From NCBI GenBank assembly GCA_046753765.1, contig JBHHUN010000001.1, positions 12,141 through 76,140 of the forward strand: a stretch of DNA of 64,000 nucleotides, in the 5' to 3' direction. The notes under the pieces are model-generated. The model saw only the letters and a program-made list of their open reading frames with translations. It searched no databases and was not told the origin of the DNA. This document shows positions 18,192 through 62,263 of the stretch, one piece after another (within the stretch, counting starts at the first letter, position 1; each line of letters starts with the position of its first letter). This DNA is from Candidatus Dojkabacteria bacterium. Lineage in GTDB: Bacteria; Patescibacteriota; Dojkabacteria; B142; OLB20. Made by a program: the position numbers and the translations under genes.

Positions 18192-18303
18192 GTAGTGAGG
18201 GTCGACCTCCTATTGTTTCTGTGCCTGAAAATTTTCTTTATTTTTGAAAATAAACACAGAATTGTTTGTGAATAATTTGCCAATACATGATCGGTAACTG
18301 CCC

Positions 18304-21300
18304 TTGCACACTGTCTTTCGTATATCAAAATTGAAACGCTTTTGTAGTCAAGATTTTGTACACTGGCTGGAAACCAGTAAAGGGTTTGTATTTTTTCTTG
18401 TTTTCATCATTTCAGTATCCCCCTGGTTGTATCTTTTTGTTAATCCCCAATCTGTTTCCGCGGATGAATGGTTTAGTGACTCCTGGGCATACAGAAAGGC
18501 AATAGATATTTCTGGCAACGCATCTGATTTGACCGACATTCAGTTTCAGGTAACCGGGGTCGATACCCAGGCGCTGTTCAACAGTGGCAAAGTGCAAAGT
18601 TGGTGCGAGGATATCCGTTTCACTAACCGCAATGGTCAACTTCTCGACTACTGGATTGAAGATGACGGCACTGACTGTGACGCCGACACTAGTACAGATT
18701 TCTGGGTTAAGCTGGACAGGGCTGAATCAGAAGGGACAAGGATTTTTATGTACTACGGCAATCCACTTGCAAGAGCCTACCAGTCAGGAAGCAGAACTTT
18801 TGATTTCTTCTCAAGTTTTGACGAATGGTATGACGAGGACTGGAAATTCAGAATAAGGCTTACCATTGACCATACGAAAGTTGAAGAAACAGTAGAGGAC
18901 TTTCCTGTTTATGTTGACCTGTCTGATCTCCCCGCTTCGTTTTTTAGTAATGTCCAAAGCGATGGTAGTGACATAGTAGTCACGAGGGTCGAGGATGCAG
19001 CGAAGCTATCAAGAGAGGTTGTCGCGATTAATACCGGCGGAAGTACCGGTGAACTTTGGTTTAGCGCCCCAAAACTATATACGCAGACAGATACCAGTTT
19101 CTACATCTACTATGGTAACGCTTCTGCAACAGAAACAAACAATTCCGGTACTTGGAATTCAAACTATGATCTGGTTTTTCATATGAATGAAGATCCTTCT
19201 GTTAGTACAGATGGAGATTGTGGTGGGGGGACTGATGAGGTGTGCGACTCCACTGTCAATAATAATGATGCGGATTCAAATGGCGGTATGACCACTGGTG
19301 ATCTTGTGGGTGGGCAGTTAGGGAGTGGAATCGATTTCGATGGTGGGGACGATTATTTGTCGATGAATGATGAATCTTCATCTGCCTTCACATATTCAGC
19401 TTGGTATAAGACTATAAATGAAACTGGAACTAAAATGATCCTGCAGACCAGTAACGGTCATTTACGCCTGCAGAATAATAATCATTTATTTAGTAATTTC
19501 GATAGCAGGAATGGGACAGGAAGTACTCACGAGGCTGCGATTTTAGGAAATGCAACTCAAGATATCTGGCATCATATAGCTATGTCAGTCACGTCCGGAC
19601 ATGTTGTCCAGGTTGTTCATGACGGTACTTCAATCTATAATACAACTCCTCCAACAGGATCTTCAACCTCAAACTATGCAAATGGGAAGGTAGGTGTTCG
19701 ATACCGAACTGCCCCCTCGGCAAATTTCTACGATTATTTTGAAGGGGTTCTTGATGAAGTACGAGTTGTTAATACAAACTTAGGATCAAATTGGATAAGC
19801 ACAGAGTACAACAACCAGAGCAGCCCAGGTACTTTCTACGGAATCAGCTCACAAGAAAGGAATGTACCTGTCTTTAGTAGTCCTGACTCCTGGTACAACG
19901 AAGCGTGGGCCAAGAGAGTTAAAGTTACTGTAAATAACTCAAAAGTAGATGAGGACGTAACAGGATTTCCGGTGTATCTGGATCTATCTCTTCTGGGAAC
20001 GAGTTTCTGGAACAATGTTGATGCGCAGGGCGACGATATTGTGGTAACTTCCGGTGACGGTGCCACAAAACTAGCACGGGAATTGGTTACAATTGATACA
20101 TCCGGAAAGACAGGAGAGCTGTGGTTTAACTCTGACCTCTCGAGCACGGTTGATACGGATGTTTACATCTATTATGGAAACGCTTCCGCAACTGAAACCA
20201 ACGATACATCAACTTGGAACAGTAACTTCCAGACAGTACACCATCTCGAAGAAGACCCCGGCGGCGTAGCACCACAGATGTCAGATAGTACATCAAATGG
20301 TTACAATGGTACTGCTAATGGTGGGATGACTAATGCCGACCAGGTTGCCGGCAAGATTGGGAACGCTTCTGACTTAGATGGTAACGATTTCTTTGCTACC
20401 ACCTATCAACCATCGGGCCAGACGGAGGTAAGTTTTTCTGCGTGGGTAAATCTGAGCACGAGCGGTATTGTATTTATAAATGGTTTCAATAGTGTCACAG
20501 ACGCATTTTACTTCTACCTGAGGGACTCTGACAATCTCCTTGGATGGGGTGTTGAAGGCGCAAATTTACAGGACCTCACCCAGACGTATGCACAGAGCGA
20601 GTGGCTATATGTCGTAGGAACATTTCAAAGTGGAACCACAAGTGGGAAGAAGATCTATTTAAACGGACAATTAGTAACATCTGCAACACAGACGGCAACG
20701 ATTACAGCCGCAACTGATTATGATATTGGTCAAAGATTCTCCGGAAACACTCTGACAGGAATGATGGATGAGACGAGGGTTGTAAACGCTGTCTTAAGCG
20801 GGAACTGGATATCAACCGAATATAGCAATCAAAATTCCCCATCAACCTTTTTTACGATTGGAAGTTCGGAGAGCAACTCTGCACCCCAGGCCAGTTGGTA
20901 CAACGGTGACTGGCAGTACAGGCAAAGGATAAGTATCCGGAACAGCCAGGTAGATACAGACCTTACAGACTTTCCTGTATATGTGGATCTCTCAAATATG
21001 GGTAGTGACTTCTTCCGGGAAGTTAAAAGTGACGGAAGTGATATTGTTGTGACCAGCTCTGATGGGTTTACTAAGCTGTCAAGGGAACTGGTGGCTATAG
21101 ATACCAGTGGAAGCACAGGCGAGCTGTGGTTTAAGGCGCCAAACCTTTATGATGCGTCAAACACCAGTTTTTATATCTACTTCGGGAATTCTTCCGCCGC
21201 AGAGATAAACTCTACTTCAACCTGGAAGTCAGATTACAAAGGGATATGGCATTTAGAAGGCGTATTCACTGATTCCACAACGAATGCCAACAATGGGACT

Positions 21301-24300
21301 GATAGCGGATCGAATGCAGCCACGGGGAGATTTGGGAACGCCAGGAGTTTTCCTGATACAGCTGATTTGGTCACTTTGGGAACAAGTGGGTACAGTGCCA
21401 GCAACACATATACTGTTGCAACATGGTTGAAACCAACAATAGATATAGATGCTCACGCATGGGAGGGTGGGAGTGTACTTTCTGCTCCTTCGCTGGAGGG
21501 GACCAGTGATTCGCTTTCATACTATGTAAACGGTGTCACGTCGATTAGTACCGGGAGTTTGACGAGCGGGCAGTGGTATTACGTTGTAGCTGTTTACGAC
21601 AAGGCCGGCACAACGCAAGAACTGTATGTTGACGGTGTATCAAAGGGAACGAATTCACTTGATATCACGGATACGTTTGGTGGTAATTTCTACCTTGGCA
21701 ACAGAGGGCTTGCTGGTGGTGGTGGGACTACGCGAAACTATGGAGGAACAATTGACGAGGTCAGGGTTACTAATACAGTTGTTAGTGGCACATGGATCTC
21801 AACAGAATACAACAACCAAAGCAGTCCAGGTAATTTTTATGGTGTTGGTGGAATTGAAAGTAGCAGCAACTGGAACAGCTTTGGAGGGCCTGATGTTTCT
21901 GGAGGCACAGCAACGCTCTCCTCTGTAGGGGATACAGAGGGTCTTGTCACAAGCACCCAGTTTTTAGAAAACTCTAAACTGATAGTCAGGGCTACCCAGA
22001 GCTCAACCAGTCTCAACACTGCAAGGTTGGGTTTCTCAAACAGTGGAATCAGCAGTACGTTCACAAATGATGATTCTGCAAGTTACCTGTTTGATTCGAG
22101 TACAGGAGCAAATTTCGAAATCTCCAATAGCAATGACGGCACTGCAACTGACGGCGCAGGCACCACAGTTGAGGATACTGTCACTCACGATCTGGAGGTC
22201 GGGTGGAGAAATGCAGCAGTAGATTTCAGGCTTGATAACGGAGCAGAGGGTACTGTCTCCACTAACCCACCCAATGAAAATATGAACGTAAGACTTGAGG
22301 TAGATACGACAGATGAGAGTGTAAGCATTGAATGGGTGGCCGTGGGCAACTATGACAGTAATCCGCCTAACAGTCAAGTGATAAACAGCGAAGAGGTTGG
22401 AGGTGGAGAGCTTGTCTACCTTCCGATGGACGAAAGCAGTGGTCAGAACGTAAACAATCTTGGAAGTCAGGCGGACATTATTGGTTTACTGGGAACAAAT
22501 GCTTTGTCTGAAAGCTCAGACCCATCCAGGGTAGATGAGTGTGCGAAAGGGAACTGTCTGGATTTTGATGGAACAGACGACGTTGTAACTGTCGCGGACG
22601 ATGACAGGATAGATTTTGATACAACAGATGACTTTACCATCACGACTTGGGTAAAGATAGAAGCTGCCACAAGTGAAAAAGTAATCTTTTCAAAACGGGT
22701 TCATACGGGTGCTACACCCGAAGAGGGGTACTTTGCCAGATTGAGAGCCACAGGTGAGGTTGAGTTCGGTATTGAACAGGCGAGCAATACCACAACTGAG
22801 GTTGGTGGTGTCGGAACTACGATTATTGACGATGACAGATGGCATCAAGTCGCATTCGTAAGAGATGTCACAGCTGACATGGTCAGGTATTATCTTGATG
22901 GGGTTCTTGAAGAAGAGCTTACAGATACCACAACTGCAACGCTAGCAAACACAGAGGATTTGCTGCTAGGCAAAAGGTCAGGAACAAATCCGGATTACAT
23001 GAATGGGCAGATAGATGAATTCAGGATATTCAGGAAAGCACTTACTGCAGCAGAAATACTTGGTCAGTTTAATGAGAGTGGTTCTGTTCTGGGGACTGAT
23101 ACTAATAATCTACGGGATGGATTAGTAGGTTGGTGGAAATTGGATGAGGAAAGCTGGAACGGAACAAGTAATGAGGTTGTAGATTACAGTGGGCTGGACC
23201 ATCACGGTAATCGCAATGGGAACGCAACAACAACTGGTGGACACTTTGGGAATGCAGGAACGTTTGATGGTAATGGCGACTATGCAGGGTTTGCAGATAC
23301 AGTAGATCACGAGCCGGCTTCAACAGTTACGGTTTCTGCATGGGTATACCCAAACAATGTAGCAACTTGGCATCAAGTAGTAGTGAAGAGGTACTCCGAA
23401 GCCAGTAATCCATGGGACTCATATATGCTTGCCTCAACTGGTGTTGGAGCAAGTAATAAGTGGAGGTTTTGTGTGTCTAACGGGACTTCTGGCAGCTCAG
23501 TATGTGCGGATGATACTGAAGTAATCACTGCAAACACATGGGTCCATCTTGTAGGAAGATACGATGGAAGTGATGTAAAGCTGTTTGTTGATGGTGTGGA
23601 AAAGTCATCTGTGAGCAAGACAGGAAACATCGGATACTCTTCAATTGGGTTACGAATTGGGATCTCAACTCCAACACAACCGACCCAGTGTATGAATGGA
23701 AAGATTGATGAAGTGCGTCTGTATAACCGTGCTTTATCATTAACAGAAATTGAAACGCTCTACGAATACAGGGCCCCTTCAGTAGCACACTGGAAATTTG
23801 ACGAGACCTCTGGGACGACAGCGTATGATTCAAGCATCAACGGATACAATGGAACCCTCACCAATATGGCCGAGGCTGATCATATTGATGGGAAGGTCGG
23901 GGGAGCCCTTGATTTTGATGGAATTGATGGCTATGTCACTGCTGGAGATAATCTTGTAGGCCTAACATTTCCTGTAACTGTCAGTTTCTGGATCAATCCG
24001 GATGCCACAGAGGGCGCCAATATTTTCTCGACAGATTCGTGGAATGTCGCAGCAAACTATGCTGGGATTGCTATAGTTCTGTCTGCGACTAATCAGGTCA
24101 ATCTTATGTATGGTGATGGTACCGGTTCTGGGTCGGCAGACAGAAGATCAGGTACAACAACGGCAACTCTATCAACCGGAACTTGGCATCACGTTACGGG
24201 GATAATCAGGGGAGCGACCGATATGGAAGTGTTCATCAATGGAGTATCTTCTGCACTGACATATTCTGGAACGGGAGGATCGATGGTGCAGACAAGTGAT

Positions 24301-26457
24301 CCCATTCTCATTTCTACAACGGTGCTTCCACTTGACGGTCAGTTAGATGATATAAGGGTCTACGACTACGAACGTACTCCTGCAGAGATTGGATCGGAGT
24401 ACGCACAGGGAGCGAGGGCTGCAGTTCCACAGAACGAGTTAGTTGGTCACTGGAAGATGGATGAGTCAAGTTGGAATGGCACAGCTGATGAGGTCATAGA
24501 TTCCAGTGGACTCGGAAATCATGGGACATCTTCAAACGGAGCCACGACAACAGTTGGAAAGATCAGTAGGGCGGGTATCTTTGATGGGAGCAATGATTCG
24601 GTCACAGTGGCCGATGTGAATGAACTGGACATGGGGACAAATGATTTCTCGATCACAGCCTGGGTAAAAACAGATAATGCAGGGGCGGATATGCGTGTTA
24701 TCTTTGGGGATGGCAATATGCAAGGTGGTGGAGACAATTCCTACGCTGTTTTATTACATGATAATAAGCCTGCTTTTGAACTTTACGACAACACGACTTA
24801 TTTAAGCAGAACTACTACTGCAAGTAGCACAACCGTAAACGATGGGAAGTGGCATCATTTAGCTTTTGTTTTTGACCGGAGCGGATCCGGGTCTATCTAT
24901 ATCGATGGCGTTTTTGATAAAGCCACGAGCATATCTTCAATTGGAAGTTTGGACAACACAAGAGGAGGGGCGATTGGAAATCAACCTACCAGAGCGTTTT
25001 ATTATGCTGGGCAGATCGACGAACTGAGGGTTATCCGCAGAGTCTTAAGTGATGAAGAGGTCTATAGCTTGTATGACTCTTTTTACGATGTAACAGTCTC
25101 CGAACGAAAACAAGCGGGAGAGGAAGTGCTCTATCTGCCTCTAAACGAAAAGTCGGGCTTGACGGCGGAAGACATCAGTGGTAATGGCTACAACGGAACA
25201 CTTAACAACACAGAAGACAGTGACCATCGTTTTGGGAAAATTGACTATTCAGTAGATTTGGACGGATCAAATGAGTACATAAGTGTCTCAGATAATAATG
25301 ATTTCTCTCCCTCAGTGACCGGAGCTGTGACAATGAGTGCCTGGATTAGGCCGGATACAATTGTCGCAGGAAACACATACATACTTACAAAAGGAGACAC
25401 ATCAAACTACGAGTATGCAATATGGCTTGGTACCGGTGGAGAGGTTGGTTGCACAGCATGGACACTCGCAGGCTTAAATCACCTTGCTGTCTCAGGCTCA
25501 ACATCAACCAGTGCAAACGAGTGGCATCATGTTGCCTGTGTCATTGAGCACAATTCGGAGATGAATATATATTTGGATGGCGCATCGGAAGGAACAGATA
25601 GTACACCTTCATCTACGATGGGTAACGGTACTGCTGATGTTCAGATTGGGAAGAGAGGAGATGATGTGGGGAATGAATTTGACGGCAGGGTAGATGAAGT
25701 AAAAATCTGGGATTTTGCCCTGAGTACCCGACAGATAGCAATGGAGTACAACGGCGGAAAACCTGTTAGTCACTGGCGGATGGATAGGCGAGAAGGAAAT
25801 ATGGCATATGACTACTCTGAAAATGGAAACCATACTCAATTGATTAATATGGCTCCAGCTTCCGACTGGCTTTCGGGGACAAGTTGCAGGATGAATGGGT
25901 GCTTAGACTTTGATGGTATTAACGACAGGCTTTGGGTAGCAGACGATGATCTCTTTGATGCGTCGCTAAACGATAGAAGTTATTCAGCATGGGTGAAGAT
26001 GCCATCTGATATCAGCGCCGGGATCGGTACTATCAGAGCGATTGTCTCAAAAGTGGCTCCATCTCTGCAGGAGCCACGATTTGACGTTGACGTTCTCAAA
26101 TCTTCTGGCTTCGTTGTGTTTGAAATTGAGTCCTCAACAAACGGAGATCTTACAAATATCACTGGAACAACCGACCTTAGGGACAACCAATGGCATCATA
26201 TCGTAGCGGTCAGAGATCGCAAGAATGATGAACTGAGGCTTTACGTTGACGGTGCGCAGGATGCGTCTCCTGTGACCGATGGAGACCAGGATGCATCAAA
26301 TAGTGGAGCTCTTTACATAGGTGATTGGGCCCCCGATCTTAGTAACGGAAGGAACTTTCTGGGACAGTTGGATGAAGTGAAGGTTTTTAATTACGCATTG
26401 ACTGATGCCGATGTACTTCTAGATTATAACCTGGGGTCAGCAATCAGATATGAGTAA
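18304..26457 (+). CDS. Giant membrane-anchored surface protein (2717 aa): 4 DUF2341-like repeats plus about 10 LamG/ConA-like lectin domains
   Basis: Single ORF of 8.15 kb. A non-ATG start is needed: TTG at 18304, and the first in-frame ATG lies after the TM helix. TM anchor FVFFLVFIISVSPWLYLF. DUF2341-like repeats have the pattern W.YR..I.I...DFPV.VDL...GsDI.V....LSRELV.IDT.G.TGELWF...YIYYGN. LamG_3-like units repeat (LVGWWKLDE...DSSGngnnGT...DFDG.DDYV...SAWV...WHHVA...LYVDGV...IDEVR.YNRALS..EI). The stop overlaps the start of the next gene (ATGAGTAA). Confidence 0.75.
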   Translation: MHTVFRISKLKRFCSQDFVHWLETSKGFVFFLVFIISVSPWLYLFVNPQSVSADEWFSDSWAYRKAIDISGNASDLTDIQFQVTGVDTQALFNSGKVQSWCEDIRFTNRNGQLLDYWIEDDGTDCDADTSTDFWVKLDRAESEGTRIFMYYGNPLARAYQSGSRTFDFFSSFDEWYDEDWKFRIRLTIDHTKVEETVEDFPVYVDLSDLPASFFSNVQSDGSDIVVTRVEDAAKLSREVVAINTGGSTGELWFSAPKLYTQTDTSFYIYYGNASATETNNSGTWNSNYDLVFHMNEDPSVSTDGDCGGGTDEVCDSTVNNNDADSNGGMTTGDLVGGQLGSGIDFDGGDDYLSMNDESSSAFTYSAWYKTINETGTKMILQTSNGHLRLQNNNHLFSNFDSRNGTGSTHEAAILGNATQDIWHHIAMSVTSGHVVQVVHDGTSIYNTTPPTGSSTSNYANGKVGVRYRTAPSANFYDYFEGVLDEVRVVNTNLGSNWISTEYNNQSSPGTFYGISSQERNVPVFSSPDSWYNEAWAKRVKVTVNNSKVDEDVTGFPVYLDLSLLGTSFWNNVDAQGDDIVVTSGDGATKLARELVTIDTSGKTGELWFNSDLSSTVDTDVYIYYGNASATETNDTSTWNSNFQTVHHLEEDPGGVAPQMSDSTSNGYNGTANGGMTNADQVAGKIGNASDLDGNDFFATTYQPSGQTEVSFSAWVNLSTSGIVFINGFNSVTDAFYFYLRDSDNLLGWGVEGANLQDLTQTYAQSEWLYVVGTFQSGTTSGKKIYLNGQLVTSATQTATITAATDYDIGQRFSGNTLTGMMDETRVVNAVLSGNWISTEYSNQNSPSTFFTIGSSESNSAPQASWYNGDWQYRQRISIRNSQVDTDLTDFPVYVDLSNMGSDFFREVKSDGSDIVVTSSDGFTKLSRELVAIDTSGSTGELWFKAPNLYDASNTSFYIYFGNSSAAEINSTSTWKSDYKGIWHLEGVFTDSTTNANNGTDSGSNAATGRFGNARSFPDTADLVTLGTSGYSASNTYTVATWLKPTIDIDAHAWEGGSVLSAPSLEGTSDSLSYYVNGVTSISTGSLTSGQWYYVVAVYDKAGTTQELYVDGVSKGTNSLDITDTFGGNFYLGNRGLAGGGGTTRNYGGTIDEVRVTNTVVSGTWISTEYNNQSSPGNFYGVGGIESSSNWNSFGGPDVSGGTATLSSVGDTEGLVTSTQFLENSKLIVRATQSSTSLNTARLGFSNSGISSTFTNDDSASYLFDSSTGANFEISNSNDGTATDGAGTTVEDTVTHDLEVGWRNAAVDFRLDNGAEGTVSTNPPNENMNVRLEVDTTDESVSIEWVAVGNYDSNPPNSQVINSEEVGGGELVYLPMDESSGQNVNNLGSQADIIGLLGTNALSESSDPSRVDECAKGNCLDFDGTDDVVTVADDDRIDFDTTDDFTITTWVKIEAATSEKVIFSKRVHTGATPEEGYFARLRATGEVEFGIEQASNTTTEVGGVGTTIIDDDRWHQVAFVRDVTADMVRYYLDGVLEEELTDTTTATLANTEDLLLGKRSGTNPDYMNGQIDEFRIFRKALTAAEILGQFNESGSVLGTDTNNLRDGLVGWWKLDEESWNGTSNEVVDYSGLDHHGNRNGNATTTGGHFGNAGTFDGNGDYAGFADTVDHEPASTVTVSAWVYPNNVATWHQVVVKRYSEASNPWDSYMLASTGVGASNKWRFCVSNGTSGSSVCADDTEVITANTWVHLVGRYDGSDVKLFVDGVEKSSVSKTGNIGYSSIGLRIGISTPTQPTQCMNGKIDEVRLYNRALSLTEIETLYEYRAPSVAHWKFDETSGTTAYDSSINGYNGTLTNMAEADHIDGKVGGALDFDGIDGYVTAGDNLVGLTFPVTVSFWINPDATEGANIFSTDSWNVAANYAGIAIVLSATNQVNLMYGDGTGSGSADRRSGTTTATLSTGTWHHVTGIIRGATDMEVFINGVSSALTYSGTGGSMVQTSDPILISTTVLPLDGQLDDIRVYDYERTPAEIGSEYAQGARAAVPQNELVGHWKMDESSWNGTADEVIDSSGLGNHGTSSNGATTTVGKISRAGIFDGSNDSVTVADVNELDMGTNDFSITAWVKTDNAGADMRVIFGDGNMQGGGDNSYAVLLHDNKPAFELYDNTTYLSRTTTASSTTVNDGKWHHLAFVFDRSGSGSIYIDGVFDKATSISSIGSLDNTRGGAIGNQPTRAFYYAGQIDELRVIRRVLSDEEVYSLYDSFYDVTVSERKQAGEEVLYLPLNEKSGLTAEDISGNGYNGTLNNTEDSDHRFGKIDYSVDLDGSNEYISVSDNNDFSPSVTGAVTMSAWIRPDTIVAGNTYILTKGDTSNYEYAIWLGTGGEVGCTAWTLAGLNHLAVSGSTSTSANEWHHVACVIEHNSEMNIYLDGASEGTDSTPSSTMGNGTADVQIGKRGDDVGNEFDGRVDEVKIWDFALSTRQIAMEYNGGKPVSHWRMDRREGNMAYDYSENGNHTQLINMAPASDWLSGTSCRMNGCLDFDGINDRLWVADDDLFDASLNDRSYSAWVKMPSDISAGIGTIRAIVSKVAPSLQEPRFDVDVLKSSGFVVFEIESSTNGDLTNITGTTDLRDNQWHHIVAVRDRKNDELRLYVDGAQDASPVTDGDQDASNSGALYIGDWAPDLSNGRNFLGQLDEVKVFNYALTDADVLLDYNLGSAIRYE

Positions 26458-29400
26458 GGCAAGGTCAAAACTTAGAACGTATCCTCTCAGGCATTGGCGC
26501 TGGCTTTGGAGCACAAAGGTTCCCGTGATATTCCTCGTACTGATGTTCCTGATTGGTGCTGTATTTGGACATCTCATCACACCCCGTAAAGCAAAAGCAG
26601 AATGGTACAACGATCTCTGGGCGTACAGAAAACAGATCGATATCTCAGGTAACGCGAGCGACCTAACTGACATTCAGTTCCAGGTAACCGGAATAGACAC
26701 TAGTGCTCTGTACTCGGTCGGTAAACTCCAGGTAGATTGTCAAGATATTAGATTTACTGATGTTCAAGGGAATCTTTTGCCTTACTGGGTCGAGGATGAT
26801 GGGATTGACTGCAGTGACGATACGACAACAGATTTTTGGGTGAGACTTCAGAGAGCTGAATCAGAAGGCACAACCATCTTCATGTACTATGGGAATCCCG
26901 ATGCTGGAGCGGGAGGGTCTGGAGATAAGACATTCGAGTTTTTCGATGACTTTTCTGAATCGATCGTAGACTGGTACAGTTCGCTGTGGTCATTCAGAAT
27001 CAGGCTGAGCGTTCAGAAATCAAAGGTTGATGCGGCACTCACTGATTTCCCGGTTTTTGTTGACCTCTCGGATTTACCAGGTCACTTCTTCAGTAATGCA
27101 GATAGTGGCGGTAATGATCTTGTTGTCACATCCTCAGACGGAACGAAACTGGATAGAGAGTTGGTGAGTATTGATACCACAGCTAGAACTGGTGAGCTGT
27201 GGTTCAGGGGGGATCTCAATGCTACTACGGATACAGACTTTTTCATCTACTATGGCAATGGGTCAGCATCTGAGACAAATGCGACTGGGACGTGGACTTC
27301 AGCCTATGCAGTTGTTCAACATCTGAATGAGGATCCGTCGGGAGGTGCTCCTCAGATGCAGGATAGTACCTCTAATAACAATGACGGGACTTCCAATGGA
27401 ACCATGGCCACTAGTGACCTGGTCAATGCAGTAGTGGGAGACGGTCTTCAGTTTGATGGTTCCAATGATTACATCTCCTTAAGCGGAGTAAATGCTACGA
27501 ACAAACTGACAGTTTCAGGATGGTTCTATCTTGAGGAATACGGCGGAGCATGTGATGGTGGGATTACAAGGGCTAATGCGTCAAATCCATACGGAGGCTT
27601 CCTACTTTCTCCTTGTTCGAACGGTACGCCAGCCATATTTAATTTTGCTGTCGCTAACTCAACAACCTGGCAGGAGGTACTAAGCAGTACAGATAAGCTC
27701 ACCGGAAGATGGTATTATGTCGTGGGAGTTTACGATGCATCGGTCAGTAGTATGAAGATATACTTCGATGGGGTCCAAGATAACTCTGCAAGTGCAACCG
27801 GGAATGTGAGAGACAACAGTGAAGCATTGCGTATAGGTCTGAATCAAACTAGTTACATGAAAGGGACTATTGATGAGGTCAGAGTTACCAGCGATGCAAA
27901 ATCGGCCAATTGGATCGCTGCGGAATACAGTAATCAAATTGACCCAGGTAACTTTTATCATCTGGGAGAACCTGAGACTGAAACATCGAGAGTCCTGCGC
28001 CCACGTCAGTGGACGGATACAGGTTCACCTGCATATACCTCAGGTGCCGTTAGCTTTTCATATGCACTAGGACAGGAAGGGATCCTCTCGACTTCACAAT
28101 TTAGCTCTGATTCGAAACTAGTTTTCAGGAGTACTGAGTCAGCAACAAGTCTGGATGATGGAAGAGTAGGTTTATCTAATACAGCACTTACGACTTCGTA
28201 TAATACTGATGATGCGGCAAGCTATCTGTTTGATTCATCCACAGGGGCAAACTTTGAACGGGAAGCGGTCAATGAGGGTATAGCAACTAGTTCTGCTGGC
28301 TCTACAATTGAGGATACATCCGCGCACGACTTTGAGATCGGTTGGACAGCAACAACGGTGGATTACAGGATTGACAATGCGACGGATGGATCGATAGTCA
28401 CTAACCTTCCTGATGAAAGCATGAATATCAGGATAGAGGTTAATAATACCAGTGAGAGCTTATCTGTAGACTGGGTGGCTGTTGCAAGCTATAACTCAGA
28501 TCCACCTGATACGCAAAATGTCGGGACCGAAGAAATCGGACCGGGACCGTTAGTTTATCTGAAGCTTGATGAAGGGCAGGGGCAGACAGCTAGTAATTCT
28601 GGCAGCGGTGGATCACAGCTTGACGGATATCTTGGTGTAGATAGTTTCGGCACAAGCAACGATCCATCCTGGACAGATGAGTGTATTTCTGGCGGCTGCC
28701 TGAAATTTGATGGCGTGGACGATGCATTTGAAATCCCAGACAATGACCTGATCGATTTCGGTACGGACGATTTTAGCGTCTCAATGTGGATGAACTTCGG
28801 TGATCAAGCCGGAGGTACGCACAACTACTCAATTGCGTTTATGAAGTCTGACAAGACAAGTTCTCCTTATGCAGGTATGACTGCTTTTGTGGACACACCA
28901 TATAGTTCGCCAAATGGAGGTGTTCAATTCAGGCTCGATAGCAACAATGAGGCAGAATCTACAACAACAGGAATGGATGATAGTCGTTGGCGGCACTATG
29001 TGTTTGTAAGGAGTGGGACAACTTTGGAGATATACATTGACGGGATTCTGAATAAATCACAATCTGTGTCAAGTATTGATATTTCAGACACTGCAAATCT
29101 ACGGTTTGGTGCGAATCAGCCGGTCGTTACAGATCAGAATTTTCAGGGCATGATGGATGAAATCAAAGTGTATGACTATGCCATCGATCAAGAGAAAGTG
29201 CTTGCGGAGTTAAACACTTATGCAGATGTTCTCGGGACTGACACCAATGGGCTTCGTGATGGCCTGGTTGGCTGGTGGAAGATGGATGAAGTCAGTGCGA
29301 ATACATGTTCAGGGGGTAATAATGACTCGTGTGATTCTTCTGGAAGTGGTAATGATGCAGCTTGGGCAAATAATGTTGCTGCAACTGCAGGTATTCTGGG

Positions 29401-32400
29401 TAGTGGAACGGTGTTTGATGGAACAGACGATTACATCAGAGATTCATCTCCAGTGGGAATGCCGACAGGTGCAAGTCCAAGAACTGTTTCCGCGTGGGTC
29501 AAACTTAATGCTCTTGGGACCAAGCAAGTTATCTTCCAGTACGGACCACCTTCAATCACAAGAAACACTCTTTTGATGGATATCAGCACAGCAAATAAAC
29601 CTGAGTTTACTTCTTGGGCTGATGGTGCAACTTCTACTACATCCCTTACAACAGGAATCTGGTATCACTTAGTTGGCACATATGATGGGGATCTTACTAT
29701 GAAAATCTATATTGACGGAGATCTGGACACAACACATACACTTGGGGGACAACTGATTTCTACTGTGGACGGCACCGGTGTTAACATGGGGGCATGGCAG
29801 GCTGGGGTTTTAGATGATCTGAATGGGAGCTTGGATGAAGTACGTGTTTACAACAAAGAACTAAGTGCAGCAGAGATAGCTAAGTTATACGAATATCGAC
29901 CTGGACCAGTGGCACGCTGGAAATTTGACGAAAAAAGCGGAACAACAGCATACGACTCATCTATCAGTGCAAATAACGGTACACTTACTGGAATGGATGG
30001 TGCAACAGATTGGGTTCAGGGGAGAACGGGAGGAGCTTTAGATTTTGATGGAATAAATGATTATGTATCTGTGGCTGACGATGACGACCTGGACTTTATT
30101 GCTGGCGCAAGCTTCAGTATCGCAGCGTGGTTTAAGACTACTGGTGCGGTGGCAGCTACGCAGCAGTTGGTAGGTAAAGGTGGTTTGGGCAATTCGATTG
30201 GGTATTCACTCTATTTGGATGCAACTGGCAATGTTGTATGCGGGATAGATGATGATGCAGTAACGTTTCCTGAAGATAGTGTTACAAGTAGTGCTGATCA
30301 AGATGATAGTGCATGGCACCACGTTGCCTGTGTCAAGGATGCTGGTTCAAGCATTAGACTCTATGTTGATGGCGTAGAGACCGGAACTGCTGATACGACC
30401 ATTTCTGCAACAGGGACTTTAGCCAGTGCTGATGCAGCTGTGATTGGGGGTCAATCTGGTGCCAACTACTTTAGTGGACGTGTTGATGACGTAAGAATGT
30501 ACGATTATGATCTGACCACATCTGAAGTTTTCAATCTATATTCCAGTTCAACAAGTAGTTCTAAGAATCCGTACAAGAAAGTGATTTCACTCTCGCCATC
30601 AACGCCCTCAGCCAACTACCAGGTGAGAGTTCCTTTGACTTCAGCTGAAATCGATTACACAAAAACTCAAGATGCTGGTGAAGATATTCGATTTGAAGAT
30701 CTTGGCGGCAGTCCACTGGACTTCTGGATTGAGAGTTGGGATGAATCCGGGACGTCAGTGGTTTGGGTAGAGGCTGCAGCGTCCGGTACTTCTTCTATTG
30801 TCATGACATACGGAAATACGGCTCTGTCGTCAGCAAGCAATGGTACGAACACATTTTTGTACTTCACAGATCTTACCTCTGATCCAGGATTAACAGGTAC
30901 AAACAGCACGAACAGCTATGCGTATTATGATGGGACAAACGATCGGATCTACTTCCAGTTTCGACGTGATAGCAGCTCAAACGTGGATCGCTACTGGACC
31001 TTACCATCCGCAATTACGGAGGACTCAATTGCAACGGATTATTCTGTCCAGAGGTATTACTATATAAGTCACGGAAAATATGGGGATAAGTTTGGATCTG
31101 TAGGGCTGTCCACGGGAACGGCCGATCCACGCACCAGTATGATTGGAAGTGGGTACACGATGGATACAGACTATGGTGTAAGTGTACCGACGTTCGTGGG
31201 AAGAGTTGCCAACTCCAGCTCGTACTCTGATATTGGTCCCTGGACAGCAAGTAATACTACCGTGTACCAGATGAGTACGGGTCTAGATGGAACATACGCC
31301 AGTAAAACTGTGTATCAGAACGGTACTCAGGTTAACACCGGAAATATCACTGTTTCGGGGCAGACTGCTAGTTATACTGAGTTCAATATCTACAGGCAAA
31401 ATTACGGGCATTCGCAGGATTATGCCACTCATAGATGGTATCTGGATGATATCCGCGTACGAAAGTTTGATCAAAACGAACCCGTCGCAACAGTTGGAGA
31501 AGAGGAGGCTAATGCGGTTGCTTTGAAAGTGAACACCGAGAGAGAAGCTAGTGGCCCACTTCTTAAGTTGAATCTTGATGAGAAATCCGGGACGACAGCT
31601 ACGGATTCCAGTGGGAACGGAAATAACGGAACGCTAAATGGTTTTATGACTGACAGCGACTGGGTGCACGGGAAGGTGGGCAATGCACTGGATTTTGATG
31701 GTGTCGATGATTTTGTCGAAGTGGCTAATGAATCGTATTTTGATCAAACTACCACACTAACGGTCGCTGGCTGGGTATATCTATCGGACTCCTCAAGGAG
31801 TTCATTTGCATCGAAAGGAACTGGGGCGAGTGCGGATGGTGGCTGGAGCTGGGACTATGGTGGATTCAATGCAGGACAGGTAGAATTTGGTGTTAACGGT
31901 GGCTCCTTGATCTACATGACGGTTGGAGCTGCAATGAGTATTAACGAGTGGCATTACGTTGTTGGAGTGTTCGATAGTTCACTTTCCGGCAATAGCAGAT
32001 TATCCCTCTATATAGATGGTGTAAAACAGACCGGTACATATACGAACAGTGGGACATTCACTACAATAACCCCTAATAATAACAGTGTGATGGTCGGGTC
32101 AAAGGATGGTGCGATTAGGTTCACTGGGAAGATTGATAAGGTACGGGTATGGGATAGAGCTCTCACTGCTCGTGAGGCAGCTATTGAATACAACGGTGGA
32201 AAACCAGTAGGATGGTGGAAGATGGATAGAGGGGAGGGCAATACAGCATATGATTACTCCGGAAATGGGAACAATGGGACACTTACGAATATGGCTCCTG
32301 CGTCGGACTGGCTTGGCTCGCAAAGTTGTAAACTAAACAGCTGTTTGGATTTTGATGGTTCGGATGATTATATTGTCGGGAATCACAGCTCAAGTTTGAA

Positions 32401-32869
32401 TTTTAATCCAAACAATCAATATACGATAGAGGCTTGGGTATATCCGAGGTCAACTGCCAACAACCCTGCAATTTATAGGAAAGGTGGGTCAGGTGGAAGC
32501 GAGGTAATCATTTTGGATATTATTGCTGGGAAGTGGCGATTGGTATCCAGAAATACTGGTGGTACCGCCTATAGAGCAACCGGTAACGCCGCTGTCACCG
32601 CTAATCAATGGTCGCATCTAATTGGAGTTATGGATGGCTCAATGCTATATTTGTATGTAAATGGAAAGTTGACTGATACCGCGGCCTTTGCAGGTAGTTT
32701 GGGTACCTCAACAGTCGGTTGGGCAATAGGTAACAGACCAGACACATTCTCTGCCACACAGCAATTAGACGGAATCGTTGACGAATTAAAGGTCTATAAC
32801 TATGCGTTTTCGAAGGAAGATAGAGATAGGTCTTATATCTCGCAGGGTGCCGCCTTGAGGTTCGAATAG
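26450..32869 (+). CDS. Giant membrane-anchored surface protein, paralogue of the previous gene (2139 aa): DUF2341-like plus LamG arrays plus a unique C-proximal module
   Basis: ATG start. TM anchor VIFLVLMFLIGAVFG. The N-terminus is near-identical to gene 1 (WYNDLWAYRKQIDISGNASDLTDIQFQVTG). 2 N-terminal and 1 internal DUF2341-like units (GEDIRFEDLGGSPLDFWIESWDESGTSVVWV). About 8 LamG_3-like domains. A W/Y-rich roughly 280-aa module ends RWYLDDIRVRKF. Confidence 0.75.
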   Translation: MSKARSKLRTYPLRHWRWLWSTKVPVIFLVLMFLIGAVFGHLITPRKAKAEWYNDLWAYRKQIDISGNASDLTDIQFQVTGIDTSALYSVGKLQVDCQDIRFTDVQGNLLPYWVEDDGIDCSDDTTTDFWVRLQRAESEGTTIFMYYGNPDAGAGGSGDKTFEFFDDFSESIVDWYSSLWSFRIRLSVQKSKVDAALTDFPVFVDLSDLPGHFFSNADSGGNDLVVTSSDGTKLDRELVSIDTTARTGELWFRGDLNATTDTDFFIYYGNGSASETNATGTWTSAYAVVQHLNEDPSGGAPQMQDSTSNNNDGTSNGTMATSDLVNAVVGDGLQFDGSNDYISLSGVNATNKLTVSGWFYLEEYGGACDGGITRANASNPYGGFLLSPCSNGTPAIFNFAVANSTTWQEVLSSTDKLTGRWYYVVGVYDASVSSMKIYFDGVQDNSASATGNVRDNSEALRIGLNQTSYMKGTIDEVRVTSDAKSANWIAAEYSNQIDPGNFYHLGEPETETSRVLRPRQWTDTGSPAYTSGAVSFSYALGQEGILSTSQFSSDSKLVFRSTESATSLDDGRVGLSNTALTTSYNTDDAASYLFDSSTGANFEREAVNEGIATSSAGSTIEDTSAHDFEIGWTATTVDYRIDNATDGSIVTNLPDESMNIRIEVNNTSESLSVDWVAVASYNSDPPDTQNVGTEEIGPGPLVYLKLDEGQGQTASNSGSGGSQLDGYLGVDSFGTSNDPSWTDECISGGCLKFDGVDDAFEIPDNDLIDFGTDDFSVSMWMNFGDQAGGTHNYSIAFMKSDKTSSPYAGMTAFVDTPYSSPNGGVQFRLDSNNEAESTTTGMDDSRWRHYVFVRSGTTLEIYIDGILNKSQSVSSIDISDTANLRFGANQPVVTDQNFQGMMDEIKVYDYAIDQEKVLAELNTYADVLGTDTNGLRDGLVGWWKMDEVSANTCSGGNNDSCDSSGSGNDAAWANNVAATAGILGSGTVFDGTDDYIRDSSPVGMPTGASPRTVSAWVKLNALGTKQVIFQYGPPSITRNTLLMDISTANKPEFTSWADGATSTTSLTTGIWYHLVGTYDGDLTMKIYIDGDLDTTHTLGGQLISTVDGTGVNMGAWQAGVLDDLNGSLDEVRVYNKELSAAEIAKLYEYRPGPVARWKFDEKSGTTAYDSSISANNGTLTGMDGATDWVQGRTGGALDFDGINDYVSVADDDDLDFIAGASFSIAAWFKTTGAVAATQQLVGKGGLGNSIGYSLYLDATGNVVCGIDDDAVTFPEDSVTSSADQDDSAWHHVACVKDAGSSIRLYVDGVETGTADTTISATGTLASADAAVIGGQSGANYFSGRVDDVRMYDYDLTTSEVFNLYSSSTSSSKNPYKKVISLSPSTPSANYQVRVPLTSAEIDYTKTQDAGEDIRFEDLGGSPLDFWIESWDESGTSVVWVEAAASGTSSIVMTYGNTALSSASNGTNTFLYFTDLTSDPGLTGTNSTNSYAYYDGTNDRIYFQFRRDSSSNVDRYWTLPSAITEDSIATDYSVQRYYYISHGKYGDKFGSVGLSTGTADPRTSMIGSGYTMDTDYGVSVPTFVGRVANSSSYSDIGPWTASNTTVYQMSTGLDGTYASKTVYQNGTQVNTGNITVSGQTASYTEFNIYRQNYGHSQDYATHRWYLDDIRVRKFDQNEPVATVGEEEANAVALKVNTEREASGPLLKLNLDEKSGTTATDSSGNGNNGTLNGFMTDSDWVHGKVGNALDFDGVDDFVEVANESYFDQTTTLTVAGWVYLSDSSRSSFASKGTGASADGGWSWDYGGFNAGQVEFGVNGGSLIYMTVGAAMSINEWHYVVGVFDSSLSGNSRLSLYIDGVKQTGTYTNSGTFTTITPNNNSVMVGSKDGAIRFTGKIDKVRVWDRALTAREAAIEYNGGKPVGWWKMDRGEGNTAYDYSGNGNNGTLTNMAPASDWLGSQSCKLNSCLDFDGSDDYIVGNHSSSLNFNPNNQYTIEAWVYPRSTANNPAIYRKGGSGGSEVIILDIIAGKWRLVSRNTGGTAYRATGNAAVTANQWSHLIGVMDGSMLYLYVNGKLTDTAAFAGSLGTSTVGWAIGNRPDTFSATQQLDGIVDELKVYNYAFSKEDRDRSYISQGAALRFE

Positions 32870-33190
32870 CTCCCGAATCAAGGTGTCTTTACTAATTATT
32901 AGCAAGGGTGGCCCTCGTCTGATAATAAAGGGGGTATAAATTCCTGGTTTAGCCCAATCCTTTCTTGATCATCGTTGCATTCGTTGAACCGATAGCCCTT
33001 AAGCTAATAGCCCTTGAAGTCAGTCATTGCCATTATCTAATACTTCAAATATGCTTTGGAAGTAGAAAATTAAGAGTTTTTGTTATGAAACATTACTCAA
33101 AAACGTACAAAAGTGCACAAATGGTATTGCTACTAACCTTTTGTTGCATTAATATGTATTAGGCAACGAAATTAAGATAGGTAAATTTAT

Positions 33191-36100
33191 ATGCTGCCTT
33201 TGCATTTTACTGTCAAACAACTGCCATTTAGAGCATTCTATGGGAGATTACTCCGTGTATTCACCCTTTTTGCATCTTTCGTGATAGTCTCGGCCCTATT
33301 CCTGCTTGTATCCCAAACGGTGAGCGCTACAGTTAATAGCACAATGAACTTCCAGGGGAAGGTTGTAAATCTCTCCGACGGTACGAACATCGTAGCTGGT
33401 TCCCCGAGCTGTGTTGCAGCAGGCGCCGATACCTGTGACTTCAGGGCAAGCATATACACCGATTCTACAGGTGGAACACTCCTTTGGCAGGAACCACAAA
33501 GTAACGTTGAGCTAGGTGACTATGAGGGTGTGTTTAATCTTTCACTAAACTCTGTGTGTGCCAGCTGGAGCAGCCCCGGCGGTAGCTGTTCAGGTTCAGG
33601 CCTAACGTGGGGGAGTGATTCAACGATCTATCTGCAGATAGAGTTTGATGATGACGGTAACGGCGACTTTGTCAGTGCTGAGACATTTACCAGAAAACTG
33701 CTGACTAGTGTCCCTTACGCCTACGAGGCTGATCAGCTTGATGGTATTGACTCAACCGGGTTTGTCCAGCTTGCGCCAGGCAGTGTACAGACAACCGGGA
33801 ATACCACTAATCCATTGATCTATCTAAACGAAAATGGTACCGGAACGCCTAATTTGCTACAACTGCAAGTCGCCGGCAGTGATATCGCAACCATAAATAA
33901 TTCAGGCGATCTCACCATAACGGGTGATGCAAACATCAATGGGGGCACTATCAACTCCACCTCTGTGTTGACTTTCAACGACAGTAACACTTTGGATATT
34001 GCCTTTAGTGATGCTTCCAACACTACGTTGCCAGTAGGTACAAATTCCATTTTGCACGCATTAAATGCTGCATCTGGAGGTGGAGGCGGGCTCTGGACCA
34101 TCAATGCTAACGTAACCTATCTTACCTCCTCTGGTTCAGATCTATCGCTCGCTTCCACCTTAGTATCTGCATTCAGTGTTGATGAAAGCGAAAACCTGGT
34201 TAGAGTAGGAGACGGTTCTTCCAGCAACGGTAAGATCGACTTCTACTCATCAACTGGGGATACGGGGAGATTTGAATACATAACAGACACACTGCAGTGG
34301 AGTGGAGGGAGTGTGAGAATTGCCAATAATACGTCTGTAAATTTCGGATCCTCAGATCAGATACAGGTTCTTTACGACAGCACTACTGATACGAGGCTGG
34401 AATTTTCAGATGGCACTAATTTACTGCTCGCACTTGATGACGCGGGCACTACCGGCGATCTCCTTGTTACCGGAACTGTAAGTATCGGAGGAAGCTCAAA
34501 TGATGTGCTAGCAACCAGTGCAGCAGCGGGGGCTGCTACCAGCAGTTTATACTGGGGAAACCAGACAGTGTGTCTTGCTGACGGAACTGGTTGCAGCACT
34601 GACTACGGACTCTGGGAGGCGCTATCTTTTAATACAGGTGCCAATACTGGAACATTTGAAAACGACAACGATGTAATCGTTGGAACGTGGGCTGGTGACG
34701 ATACGCCATTGACCAATACCGGCTTTGTTTTAGACAGTACCACAGCAGACGATCTTTTTGTACTCGATCTGCTTGGTGTTGGGGATAGTTTGTACGTAGA
34801 AAACAACATCGTTGCCGGAAGTGGAGCACTTACGCTTAGTGACAGTGGTATTACAGATGGCGACTCGAATCTTGTGCTTACTGCAACGGGGGCAAATGTA
34901 GTCCAGATCAGTGATGCCCTTACTGTGACTGGCGGAACTGCTACATTCTCGGGCGGTAACGTTATTGTGCAGCATACAACACCTTATGACATCGTTATTG
35001 ATAATTCGACGGTAGGAGTTCCAACGGGAGGGAATCTGGCAAGCGATTCAGGCTACCTAACTCTCAGGGGAAACTTCTTTGACGATACCCCTGACACTGA
35101 CACTGAGCTCGACATGAGCTTGCTTATGGACGTTACTGACGGTTCCACATATCGGCTTGGATTTTATAACGATGGAAAGGCAGCTGAGATTGGAAGCCTT
35201 GATGAGTCAGGGAATCTACAGGTTGACGGAACACTTAATCTAGGTACAAACACTGCAGACGTACTTAGCGTTGGAGCTGGAACTGCAGCAAATGGTGATC
35301 TCTACTGGGGTGACGATCTGCTTTGTGATACAAGTCAGTCCAATTGTGGATGGGCAGCTGGTGGATCGACGCTCTTCACTGACGGAGGGACACTCACGTA
35401 TCTTACACAGACAGCCGATGATTTTGCCATCGGCGGAAGTGCCTTGGCCTCACCATTTAGTGTGGACACAGATATAAATACAGTGAGGATTGGTGACGGG
35501 ACTAGTGACGTTAATGATCCAACAGTGACTTTCTATGCCAGCAATGCAGTCGATTCCGGAAGTATTATCTATCTGGATGCGGACGGGTTTCAGTTTAGCG
35601 GTGGAGATGTGCTAGTAGGAGCTGCGAGCGAAACTATAGCGGGTGCAGGGTTCGTATTGAACGGGGACGATCTGTTCGTAAACGGCCAGCTTGGTGTTGA
35701 GGGAGATATCTACACAGACGCAGATCTTACACTTCAATCAGATGTAGACACGACTGGAGTAGGGGATATCACTATTAACTTCGGAGGAACGAACACGGAG
35801 ACCATTGCCTGGATAGCATCGCTTGACGGTTTCCAGGTATCGGACGATCTTTTGCCTTCCACTGATGACGCACTTGATCTTGGTTCGAATACGCTAAGAT
35901 GGCGTGATCTTTACACAGGCCCCGGGACGATACATGTAGGAACATCAACCTCAGATGAAGGTACCCTCAGCTATAACACAACCACAAATGACTTAGCCAT
36001 TGAGAGCACTGGAGATCTGGTTCTCTTAAGTGGGGGTGGATATGTAGGGATTGGAACTGCAACGACAACTGCATTTCTGGATATAACCGCTCCTACCACC

Positions 36101-55840: not shown

Positions 55841-56206
55841 ATGGGGAAGAAACTACTAATTGTTGAGGACGAGAAGCCCATAGCACGCGCGTTGGAGCTG
55901 AAGCTTTCTAACTCGGGGTTCGAAGTGACTGTAGCCCTAGATGGCCAGAAGGCGATTGATCTGGTAGATAACGGTGAGTTTGACCTCATCCTACTGGATC
56001 TGGTTATGCCAAATCTGGATGGCTTTGGATTTCTCACGCAGCTGAAAGAGAAAGGGAAAAAGATCCCCGTTATTGTAACTTCCAACCTAAGCCAGGATGA
56101 AGACATCGAGAAGGCCAAACAGATGGGGGCAGTTGGATACTACGTGAAATCTAACACACCGCTCGCTGATATCGTAGATAAAATCAATCAATATTTCGCT
56201 AAATGA
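55841..56206 (+). CDS. Stand-alone response-regulator receiver domain (CheY/PilH-like)
   Basis: 121 aa. Receiver motifs (LIVEDEKP; DLILLDLVMPNLDG; VIVTSNL...K). No output domain. ATGA overlap with pilB. Confidence 0.8.
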   Translation: MGKKLLIVEDEKPIARALELKLSNSGFEVTVALDGQKAIDLVDNGEFDLILLDLVMPNLDGFGFLTQLKEKGKKIPVIVTSNLSQDEDIEKAKQMGAVGYYVKSNTPLADIVDKINQYFAK

Positions 56207-59261: not shown

Positions 59262-59263
59262 CG

Positions 59264-59710: not shown

Positions 59711-59711
59711 G

Positions 59712-62261: not shown

Positions 62262-62263
62262 AG

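Follow-up and report, generated by a model that had tools for sequence, protein, structure and literature searches.

A tandem pair of giant genes in Candidatus Dojkabacteria encodes putative secreted proteins with DUF2341, GH16-like and LamG domains

Two overlapping giant genes in a Dojkabacteria chromosome segment

Patescibacteria depend on other cells, and the molecules that they use for attachment are largely unknown. We analysed a 64,000-nucleotide (nt) stretch of DNA, hereafter called the window, from Candidatus Dojkabacteria (contig JBHHUN010000001.1, 113,719 bp in all; positions 12,141 to 76,140 of the forward strand). The window is a chromosome segment of a metagenome-assembled genome (MAG), and nearly all of its genes are on the plus strand, as are all features of the pair described below. 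This pair consists of two adjacent giant genes, here called gene 1 and gene 2, which are followed by a third giant, gene 3. Gene 1 is an intact open reading frame (ORF) at 18304-26457, with 2717 codons counted from the first TTG. Gene 2, at 26450-32869, is likewise intact, starts with ATG and specifies 2139 amino acids (aa), identical to MFQ5492567.1 in the public record. The deposited form of gene 1 is MFQ5492566.1, and both carry the label 'MAG: DUF2341 domain-containing protein [Candidatus Dojkabacteria bacterium]'. Here, we report that genes 1 and 2 are members of a lineage-specific, already annotated multigene family, and that their products are candidate attachment proteins. The locus reveals no new kind of system. 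What we add is the identity of modules previously described as unknown, a nested domain insertion, a C-terminal motif, and a correction to the start of gene 1. The outcome is a well-resolved domain map of one lineage-specific family of attachment candidates, which helps annotation and, for the time when Dojkabacteria co-cultures become available, the choice of targets.

The end of gene 1 and the beginning of gene 2 coincide. The original prediction, made from the DNA sequence by an earlier reader, had noted a stop-start overlap and we found the same: the ATG of gene 2 (26450) and the TAA of gene 1 (26455-26457) are both within GATATGAGTAAGG, so that start codon and stop codon share an 8-nt overlap at 26450-26457 (ATGAGTAA). 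Co-transcription of the pair is probable, and ribosomes that terminate on gene 1 probably go on to translate gene 2. Translational coupling, as first proposed, is a reasonable inference from the overlap.

Domain organisation of the encoded proteins

Units were mapped with hidden Markov models (HMMs) built from the proteins of genes 1 and 2 themselves, alongside those of Pfam. The Pfam family Laminin_G_3 (PF13385, of the ConA-like lectin/glucanase clan; gathering cut-off 27.6 bits), referred to here as LamG, matches nine stretches of gene 1 (E 1e-185, 610 bits) and six of gene 2 (E 1e-136, 451 bits). DUF2341 (PF10102; cut-off 23.4 bits) matches with E 1e-25 (90.5 bits) and E 4e-38 (130.2 bits), respectively. 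Our own models place four DUF2341 units in gene 1 and three in gene 2. They also identify nine LamG units in gene 1, six of which follow an internal module shared by the two proteins (module X), and six units in gene 2, of which five do so. Note that the earlier count, of 8-10 LamG units downstream of this module in each protein, was too high, and that three DUF2341-LamG cassettes in gene 1, against one in gene 2, had been missed. Further Pfam matches (Toxin_R_bind_N, Laminin_G_1/2, Sialidase N-terminal domain, and Pentaxin) are same-clan overlaps on LamG units. We also considered, and rejected, a relationship with clostridial neurotoxin. Briefly, the PF07953 match in gene 1 (107.7 bits) falls on LamG units and is accompanied by no other toxin domain; only a same-clan fold resemblance is left.

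The order of units in gene 1 is signal peptide, a first DUF2341 unit called D1, three cassettes that each join a D2-type DUF2341 unit to a LamG unit, module X, and six LamG units. D1 (aa 55-174) is encoded at 18466-18825 and ends with the strand TFDFFSSF (18796-18819). The cassettes occupy 18823-21798, and consist of D2 (18823-19176) with LamG1 (19339-19797), D3 (19888-20238) with LamG2 (20377-20811), and D4 (20893-21246) with LamG3 (21352-21798). Module X (aa 1180-1375) follows at 21841-22428. The six C-terminal LamG units, between 22567 and 26415, are at 22567-23058, 23266-23751, 23917-24390, 24583-25062, 25261-25737, and 25912-26415.

Gene 2 has the order signal peptide, D1, a single D2-LamG cassette, module X, three LamG units, a DUF2341 unit with an adjoining module, and two LamG units. 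Its N-terminal part (26450-27916) includes D1 (26600-26962), D2 (26969-27316), and LamG1 (27455-27916). Module X (aa 510-705) is encoded at 27977-28564. LamG units 2-4 (28709-30529) are at 28709-29200, 29417-29878, and 30047-30529. The extra unit at 30548-31684 combines a D1-type DUF2341 unit (30548-30883) with what we call the W/Y module (30884-31684). LamG units 5 and 6 (31697-32179 and 32354-32821) lie in the last segment, 31697-32866, which includes the C-terminus.

The consensus of all 15 LamG units reads DG.DDY, TvSAWv, WhHvvgV.D, iY.DGv, and G.iDEVRVyn.aLs..eI, and includes the framework motifs that had been picked out by eye. The first strands of each LamG unit (hWKfDE...DSSGNGNNGT) are in the segments between LamG units, outside the Pfam envelopes.

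A GH16-like module without the catalytic motif

Module X is 46-48% identical, at the amino acid level, between gene 1 and gene 2, which agrees with its earlier description as a shared internal module. Pfam returned no match for the isolated X modules, or for the W/Y module, even at E <= 5, GH16 included. A word-indexed homologue search with module X was also empty, though 45%-identical relatives exist; this is an artefact of sensitivity. Exhaustive HMMER searching of 1.84 billion cluster representatives detected module X in 56 proteins at E <= 1e-3, and in 11 of these at E <= 1e-30. Note that the search profile was built from the modules of genes 1 and 2, so the appearance of these genes as the top two matches is self-recovery. 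The relatives score 120-190 bits with the profile and the best matches are mostly 1,650-1,850 aa in length. Among the top matches that we looked up (P0124-P0128 and P0132), most are labelled Candidatus Dojkabacteria or derive from contigs of roughly 1 Mb.

A profile of 24 module X family members matches Bacillus GH16 lichenases in the PDB (E 3e-6). The AlphaFold2 (AF2) model of the module is an all-beta sandwich, with a predicted local distance difference test score (pLDDT) of 86. Hence, module X is closest to GH16 enzymes in both sequence profile and fold, and has the look of a GH16-like, or ConA-like, beta-jelly roll in both proteins. The GH16 motif ExDx(x)E, which supplies the nucleophile and acid/base glutamates, is not kept in the family. 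In an ungapped extension of the HMMER alignment, the lichenase sequence EIDIE pairs with DDSAS/DDAAS, and the corresponding columns of the 24 members hold D, D, S/A, A, and a variable residue or gap. An Asp therefore stands at the nucleophile position, and the acid/base column holds either varied residues or a gap. Because neither glutamate is kept, the module is probably non-catalytic.

A second copy of this arrangement may be present in gene 2. The internal DUF2341 unit (aa 1367-1478), proposed earlier and recognised by Pfam when isolated (E 1e-14), most resembles D1-type units (gene 1 D1 is 32% identical, E 9e-9). The W/Y module beside it (aa 1479-1745) has no sequence match in gene 1, as had been stated. 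Its description as W/Y-rich needs tempering, since Trp and Tyr make up 10.8% of residues, compared to 7.1% for the whole gene 2 protein. The module is 46% identical to segments of a 1520-aa gene in OLB20 and a 1767-aa gene in CP129477. In a profile comparison, its C-terminal 84 columns align with module X (probability 86%, E 5e-6), and the motif DDIRVRKF is paired with DWVxVxKY. Taken together, the extra unit of gene 2 looks like a second, divergent pair of D1 and X.

Cassettes appear to be inserted in a loop of the GH16-like domain

We next consider how the DUF2341-LamG cassettes are joined to their surroundings. The AF2 model of the cassette has a pLDDT of 87 and a predicted template modelling score (pTM) of 0.89. 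It was built from an alignment of 55 sequences, mostly stand-alone proteins of ~330-400 aa from the candidate phyla radiation (CPR) and other phyla. The model is a jelly-roll beta-sandwich and resembles solved lectin and carbohydrate-binding module (CBM) domains. For the LamG cassette, the best match is the carbohydrate-binding domain of an arabinanase; the N-domains of botulinum and tetanus Hc, CBM40 sialic-acid modules, pentraxins, and the lectin module of the Streptococcus sanguinis pilin PilC are also listed.

In simpler relatives, D1 runs straight into the sequence TFEFFDDFxGxxLxxxxWxxxGxP, which is the start of module X. The strand TF(D/E)FF..F is kept immediately after D1 in gene 1, in gene 2 (TFEFFDDF, 26930-26953), and in the OLB20 genes. 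The rest of module X, beginning W..G.P.., is found only past the cassette or cassettes, after an interval of 1014 aa in gene 1 and of 343 aa in gene 2. Since the alignment has the first strand of X after D1, and the remainder beyond the cassettes, it seems that the latter entered the GH16-like domain at its first loop. A separate observation concerns P0123 (1848 aa), where the loop between D1 and X holds a different insert, at residues ~135-344, that looks by sequence to be of the discoidin/F5_F8-type-C kind. The insert is a hint that this loop has received insertions more than once.

Genes 1 and 2 are old, collinear paralogues

The pair had been described as duplicated and diverging, and our alignments support this view. 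Both BLASTP and segment alignment are collinear across the two genes. D1 is 70% identical in amino acid sequence, and up to 90% in a 30-aa window, so the conservation claimed for the N-terminus holds. The DNA identity of about 75% that was claimed with it does not: the stretch cited is 71% identical (45 of 63 nt), and the whole of D1 is 63% identical, with only 37% at third codon positions. Identity is 57% for D2 and 48-71% for the segments between Pfam LamG envelopes. Conversely, the Pfam-defined LamG cores share 27-36% identity in matched units, and 22-40% over all unit pairs, in accord with the high variability reported for them. Hence, the N-terminus, module X, and the inter-LamG segments are conserved relative to the LamG cores. 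The collinear correspondence of LamG units is visible only in the inter-unit segments. The cores do not resolve one-to-one orthology, given identities of 22-40% for all pairs and neighbour-joining (NJ) trees of the C-terminal LamG units that are star-like.

Third-codon identity is 26-47% in every segment, which indicates saturation at synonymous sites; the duplication is therefore old. In the region 18200-32900, there are no long, near-identical DNA repeats (the most similar pair matches at 89% across 27 nt, and the longest spans 67 nt at ~70% identity), and there are no tandem DNA repeats in either gene. No reverse transcriptase is encoded among window ORFs of at least 150 aa. We thus ruled out recent gene conversion, and diversification by a diversity-generating retroelement (DGR), for lack of near-identical or tandem repeats; the DGR is further ruled out by the lack of a reverse transcriptase among those ORFs.

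Signal peptides and a corrected start for gene 1

The N-termini of genes 1 and 2 read as Sec-type. In gene 1, the region 18331-18465 encodes a basic n-region and the hydrophobic core FVFFLVFIISVSPWLYLFV, followed by VSA and then DEW. The signal peptide of gene 2, at 26450-26599, ends with AKA, which is followed by EW. An AXA motif thus lies directly before the start of D1, W..W.YR, in both proteins (VSA then DEWFSDSWAYRK in gene 1, and AKA then EWYNDLWAYRK in gene 2). The same pattern is found in P0123-P0135, P0006, and P0001, and a basic n-region, hydrophobic core, and AXA motif precede W..W.YR in all relatives inspected. In the case of P0006, the alignment with gene 1 extends through the hydrophobic core. 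This suggests a cleavable Sec signal peptide, and not a permanent membrane anchor, in both proteins. Hence, the transmembrane helix originally assigned to gene 1 is more likely the h-region of a signal peptide. Neither gene 1 nor gene 2 has a match to PF07963, the Pfam model for class III (prepilin) signals, while pilins encoded at 59712 and 62264 in the window do match it.

The signal peptide bears on the start of gene 1. The frame is closed upstream by a TAA at 18295-18297 and its first ATG is codon 149 (nt 18748). As previously recognised, no in-frame ATG precedes the hydrophobic segment; the in-frame TTG codons are at 18304, 18331, and 18427. The public record uses TTG 18427 (MYLFVNPQSVSADEW...), to give a protein of 2676 aa. 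This codon falls inside the hydrophobic segment and halves it, so the deposited protein lacks a signal peptide. Since all relatives inspected have the n-region, hydrophobic core, and AXA motif before the first DUF2341 unit, the start must, on comparative grounds, be one of the upstream codons, TTG 18331 or TTG 18304. We prefer TTG 18331 on account of the A-rich sequence upstream of it, a context shared with other genes in the window, and of the Lys-Arg that follows. The corresponding coding sequence, 18331-26457, specifies 2708 aa. Shine-Dalgarno sequences were uninformative as a guide, with most window genes having no recognisable example. Gene 1 is the sole ORF, of ~32 in the window, to require a non-ATG start; a TTG is listed for DnaB (54438) and has an ATG immediately after it. 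We also read, from the sequence, an upstream ORF (uORF) of 15 codons, with an ATG start, at 18287-18334 (MIGNCPCTLSFVYQN, then stop). The TGA of this uORF overlaps TTG 18331 as TTGA. Speculatively, ribosomes that finish the uORF may be passed on to this TTG, so coupling translation of the uORF to that of gene 1.

A family of tandem genes across Dojkabacteria

Genes 1 and 2 share a C-terminal motif, GSAIRYE in gene 1 (26434-26454) and GAALRFE in gene 2 (32846-32866). The general form, G(A/S)(A/I/L)(L/I)R(F/Y/I)E, terminates genes 1 and 2 and 15 other sequences: P0123-P0133 and four genes of the OLB20 and GCA_964437465.1 loci, among which is a duplicate of P0133. The narrower form, G(A/S)ALR(F/Y)E, ends nearly all complete members of the family. 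Because this motif resembles the strand hWKfDE that opens each LamG unit, it may serve as a structural capping strand.

We define a Dojkabacteria family, so far unnamed, with the architecture signal peptide, DUF2341, GH16-like module, LamG array, and ALRFE terminus. Genes 1 and 2 have the AXA motif before D1, module X, the C-terminal motif, and tandem paralogues. Their nearest relatives are only 40-45% identical, and a scan of genome contigs with the N-terminus of gene 2 recovered only four distant loci. Tandem arrays of 2-4 genes occur elsewhere, at loci L005, L008, and L010. Examples include four family genes in a row in the 1,090,595 bp genome CP129477.1, two genes separated by 1 nt on a contig of JGI 3300068448, and at least three tandem genes in OLB20 (WS6; L005, JYNZ01000005.1, 3837-16362). 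The OLB20 products of 547 and 1520 aa are jointly collinear with gene 2, with 41-43% identity. The architecture of gene 2, including the extra DUF2341 and W/Y unit, recurs in this OLB20 pair and in the 1767-aa gene of CP129477. Given this recurrence, the tandem arrays elsewhere, the saturated third positions, and the missing near-identical repeats, the gene 1 and gene 2 pair is neither peculiar to this genome nor of recent origin.

Paralogues from one genome group together in an NJ tree of D1. For the last two LamG units, the NJ trees have a star-like shape and leave genes 1 and 2 unpaired. None of these trees was bootstrapped. Some OLB20 members look split, as 1523 and 518 aa, and 547 and 1520 aa, with tails on the 1523-aa and 547-aa products that seem to be out of frame. 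This suggests frameshifts or assembly errors, and not truly short genes.

Candidate function in attachment or host recognition

We favour the interpretation that genes 1 and 2 are tandemly amplified, Dojkabacteria-specific genes for secreted giants that act as multivalent glycan- or glycoprotein-binding proteins, in attachment or host recognition. We put the probability at roughly 0.55. The products would be exported by the Sec pathway, by way of the N-terminal signal peptide and its AXA site. Each would then present a chain of lectin- or CBM-type beta-sandwiches, made up of DUF2341 units, one GH16-like jelly roll, and 6-9 LamG units. Such a chain could bind, multivalently, to glycans or glycoproteins on another cell or surface, as might be expected of a bacterium that is ultrasmall and depends on a host. 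The scaffold would consist of the N-terminal module, the inter-LamG segments, and the ALRFE terminus, all of them conserved, while the divergent LamG cores would give each paralogue different binding specificities. Roles of this type have been proposed before: giant DUF2341-containing proteins of Patescibacteria are thought to be adhesion or host-interaction factors (PMC11809585), and multi-LamG surface proteins have been suggested to mediate host recognition in DPANN symbionts (PMC10266531).

Several observations weigh against this interpretation. No ligand-binding residues were identified in genes 1 and 2. Furthermore, we found no cell-wall or membrane anchor in either protein beyond the N-terminal hydrophobic segment, which may itself be cleaved. 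Gene 1 needs a TTG start while every other called gene of the window starts with ATG; the argument for its translation therefore comes only from signal peptide conservation in homologues. Finally, relaxed constraint, and not diversifying selection, could account for the divergence seen in the LamG cores; the ratio of nonsynonymous to synonymous substitution rates (dN/dS) is not computable between the copies because synonymous sites are saturated.

Other explanations deserve comparison with an attachment role. The proteins might instead capture or process polysaccharides outside the cell, with the CBM-like LamG units holding glycans of environmental or host origin and the GH16-like module acting as a divergent glycanase or transglycosylase, for nutrient scavenging and not attachment. 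The position of module X nearest to GH16 enzymes, by profile and fold, is in keeping with this, as are the arabinanase match of the LamG cassette and the conserved DD motif, which is on the strand that carries GH16 catalytic residues. Even so, we regard such activity as rather unlikely. Loss of ExDx(x)E extends across the 24 family members, the modules have no Pfam match to GH16 at the permissive threshold given above, and Pfam detects no catalytic domain elsewhere in either protein. A structural role in the envelope, as an S-layer-like coat, surface coat, or set of fibrils with no specific ligand, would turn LamG divergence into a sign of low constraint, or of antigenic drift under pressure from phages or predators. 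It would account for conserved scaffold segments and termini alongside variable cores, for a neighbouring gene 3 that is fibre-like, and for the outlay involved: genes 1-3, adjacent to one another, take up ~24 kb of chromosome, which is large given the ~1.1 Mb genomes of relatives (CP129477.1). Yet Pfam and NCBIfam reveal no S-layer homology, anchor domain, or self-assembly motif in genes 1 and 2, and every recognised fold is of a ligand-binding type, making a purely structural role very unlikely.

The window also encodes a type IV pilus, ~23 kb downstream, for which genes 1 and 2 could provide tip or accessory adhesins, in line with the PilY1-like role proposed for DUF2341 proteins encoded with archaeal type IV pili. 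Published work connects DUF2341 with type IV pili (PMC4858521, and an annotation cited in PMC11809585), and P0087, a distant DUF2341-LamG relative, has a pilin N-terminal methylation motif. PilB, PilC, and pilins are encoded at 56203-62779. We nevertheless consider a pilus-associated function highly improbable. Genes 1 and 2 have Sec-type signal peptides with AXA sites, and not prepilin class III signals, and give no match to PF07963. Genes for SSB, Ctp, HtrA, PrmC, RF1, and DnaB, which have housekeeping roles, lie between genes 1-3 and the pilus block, and the arrays of other genomes are not near pilus genes within the flanks examined. A broader version of the attachment and host-recognition interpretation can also be entertained. 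The tandem DUF2341/GH16-like/LamG genes, with fibre-like gene 3, might form a Dojkabacteria-specific modular apparatus in which a conserved scaffold supports rapidly diversifying LamG cores that set host range, like phage receptor-binding proteins. New binding cassettes would then be gained at an evolutionary insertion hot-spot, the loop that joins strands 1 and 2 of the GH16-like domain. We offer this tentatively, as something that is possible but unlikely to be right in full.

Comparison with known systems

One close precedent, from the same phylum-level group, is the giant DUF2341/FhaB proteins noted in the description of Patescibacterium danicum (PMC11809585). Like genes 1 and 2, these are very large and secreted, contain one or more DUF2341 units, and have a proposed role in adhesion or host interaction. 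That study is limited to domain counts for proteins above 4000 aa, whereas genes 1 and 2 encode 2.1-2.7 kaa and have no FhaB domain. They also belong to a narrower family, defined by the combination of DUF2341, GH16-like module, LamG array, and ALRFE. The multi-LamG genes of the DPANN archaeon Candidatus Nanohalococcus occultus (SVXNc_0801-0831; PMC10266531) are similar in being clustered or operonic genes for secreted proteins with multiple ConA-like/LamG domains, in an ultrasmall ectosymbiont. They also adjoin a fibre- or adhesin-like giant gene, and a part in host recognition has been proposed. Differences are that these genes are from another domain of life, have at most five LamG units, and are reported with neither DUF2341 nor a GH16-like module. 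Our comparison with them covers the LamG fold.

Short DUF2341-LamG proteins (~350-390 aa), common in CPR bacteria and Omnitrophota, share the same two-domain cassette with 30-43% identity (for example P0047, Candidatus Wolfebacteria A2755_00680). Unlike genes 1 and 2, these are single, stand-alone cassettes that have no D1, module X, LamG array, or ALRFE terminus. The N-terminus differs in some of them, and in one it bears a pilin N_methyl motif. The GH16 lichenases 1GBG and 3I4I share a beta-jelly-roll fold and profile similarity with module X. In module X, however, ExDx(x)E is replaced by DD(S/A)A(x), the first strand is split off by the cassette insert (343 aa or 1014 aa), and the domain is embedded in a giant, non-enzymatic array. 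Lastly, TafC, the tip subunit of haloarchaeal Tat-fimbriae (NF052521; PMC11821415), displays a LamG-type domain outward on an appendage, and its model matches the LamG units of genes 1 and 2. We rejected membership of this family, as scores of 217.6 and 169.6 bits are below the cut-off of 410 and only the LamG part of the model (~148-367) is matched. Genes 1 and 2 also differ from TafC in having no Tat signal and no TafA-like donor-strand domain.

Genes surrounding the pair

The three giants are located directly after the gene for YchF. The gene order on the 5' side is PBP2, DprA, TopA, S2, Tsf, RRF, RseP, DnaX, RecR, CysS, CCA enzyme, beta-CASP RNase, and YchF. On the 3' side are SSB, Ctp protease, HtrA, PrmC, RF1 (on the minus strand), DnaB, and the type IV pilus block (56203-62779). 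The last of these encodes a PilB-like ATPase (56203-57864) and a PilC-like platform protein that has an SH3 domain at its C-terminus (57864-59261). It also encodes a pilin-like protein of 849 aa, in which LVIVD repeats occur (59712-62261), and a pilin of 171 aa (62264-62779). An Rfam scan of the whole window gave no match, and terminator and promoter scans around the gene boundaries gave nothing decisive. Four ORFs of 164-690 aa (42859-43353, 43740-44444, 45682-47754, and 52657-53781) are without a Pfam match, and the 690-aa product is encoded just 3' of SSB.

Gene 3 (33191-42742) specifies a protein of 3183 aa, with a signal peptide (..TVSA, followed by TV), internally repeated fibre-like segments, and no Pfam match. 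Two of its regions have 44% identity to a Peptidase_S74-containing protein of 1882 aa. The gene for the latter is the 3' neighbour of DUF2341/LamG genes in GCA_964437465.1 (L007, 11960-17608). The same kind of adjacency was not seen at L008 or L010, and at L005, in OLB20, genes for CobW and ZnuA come after the array.

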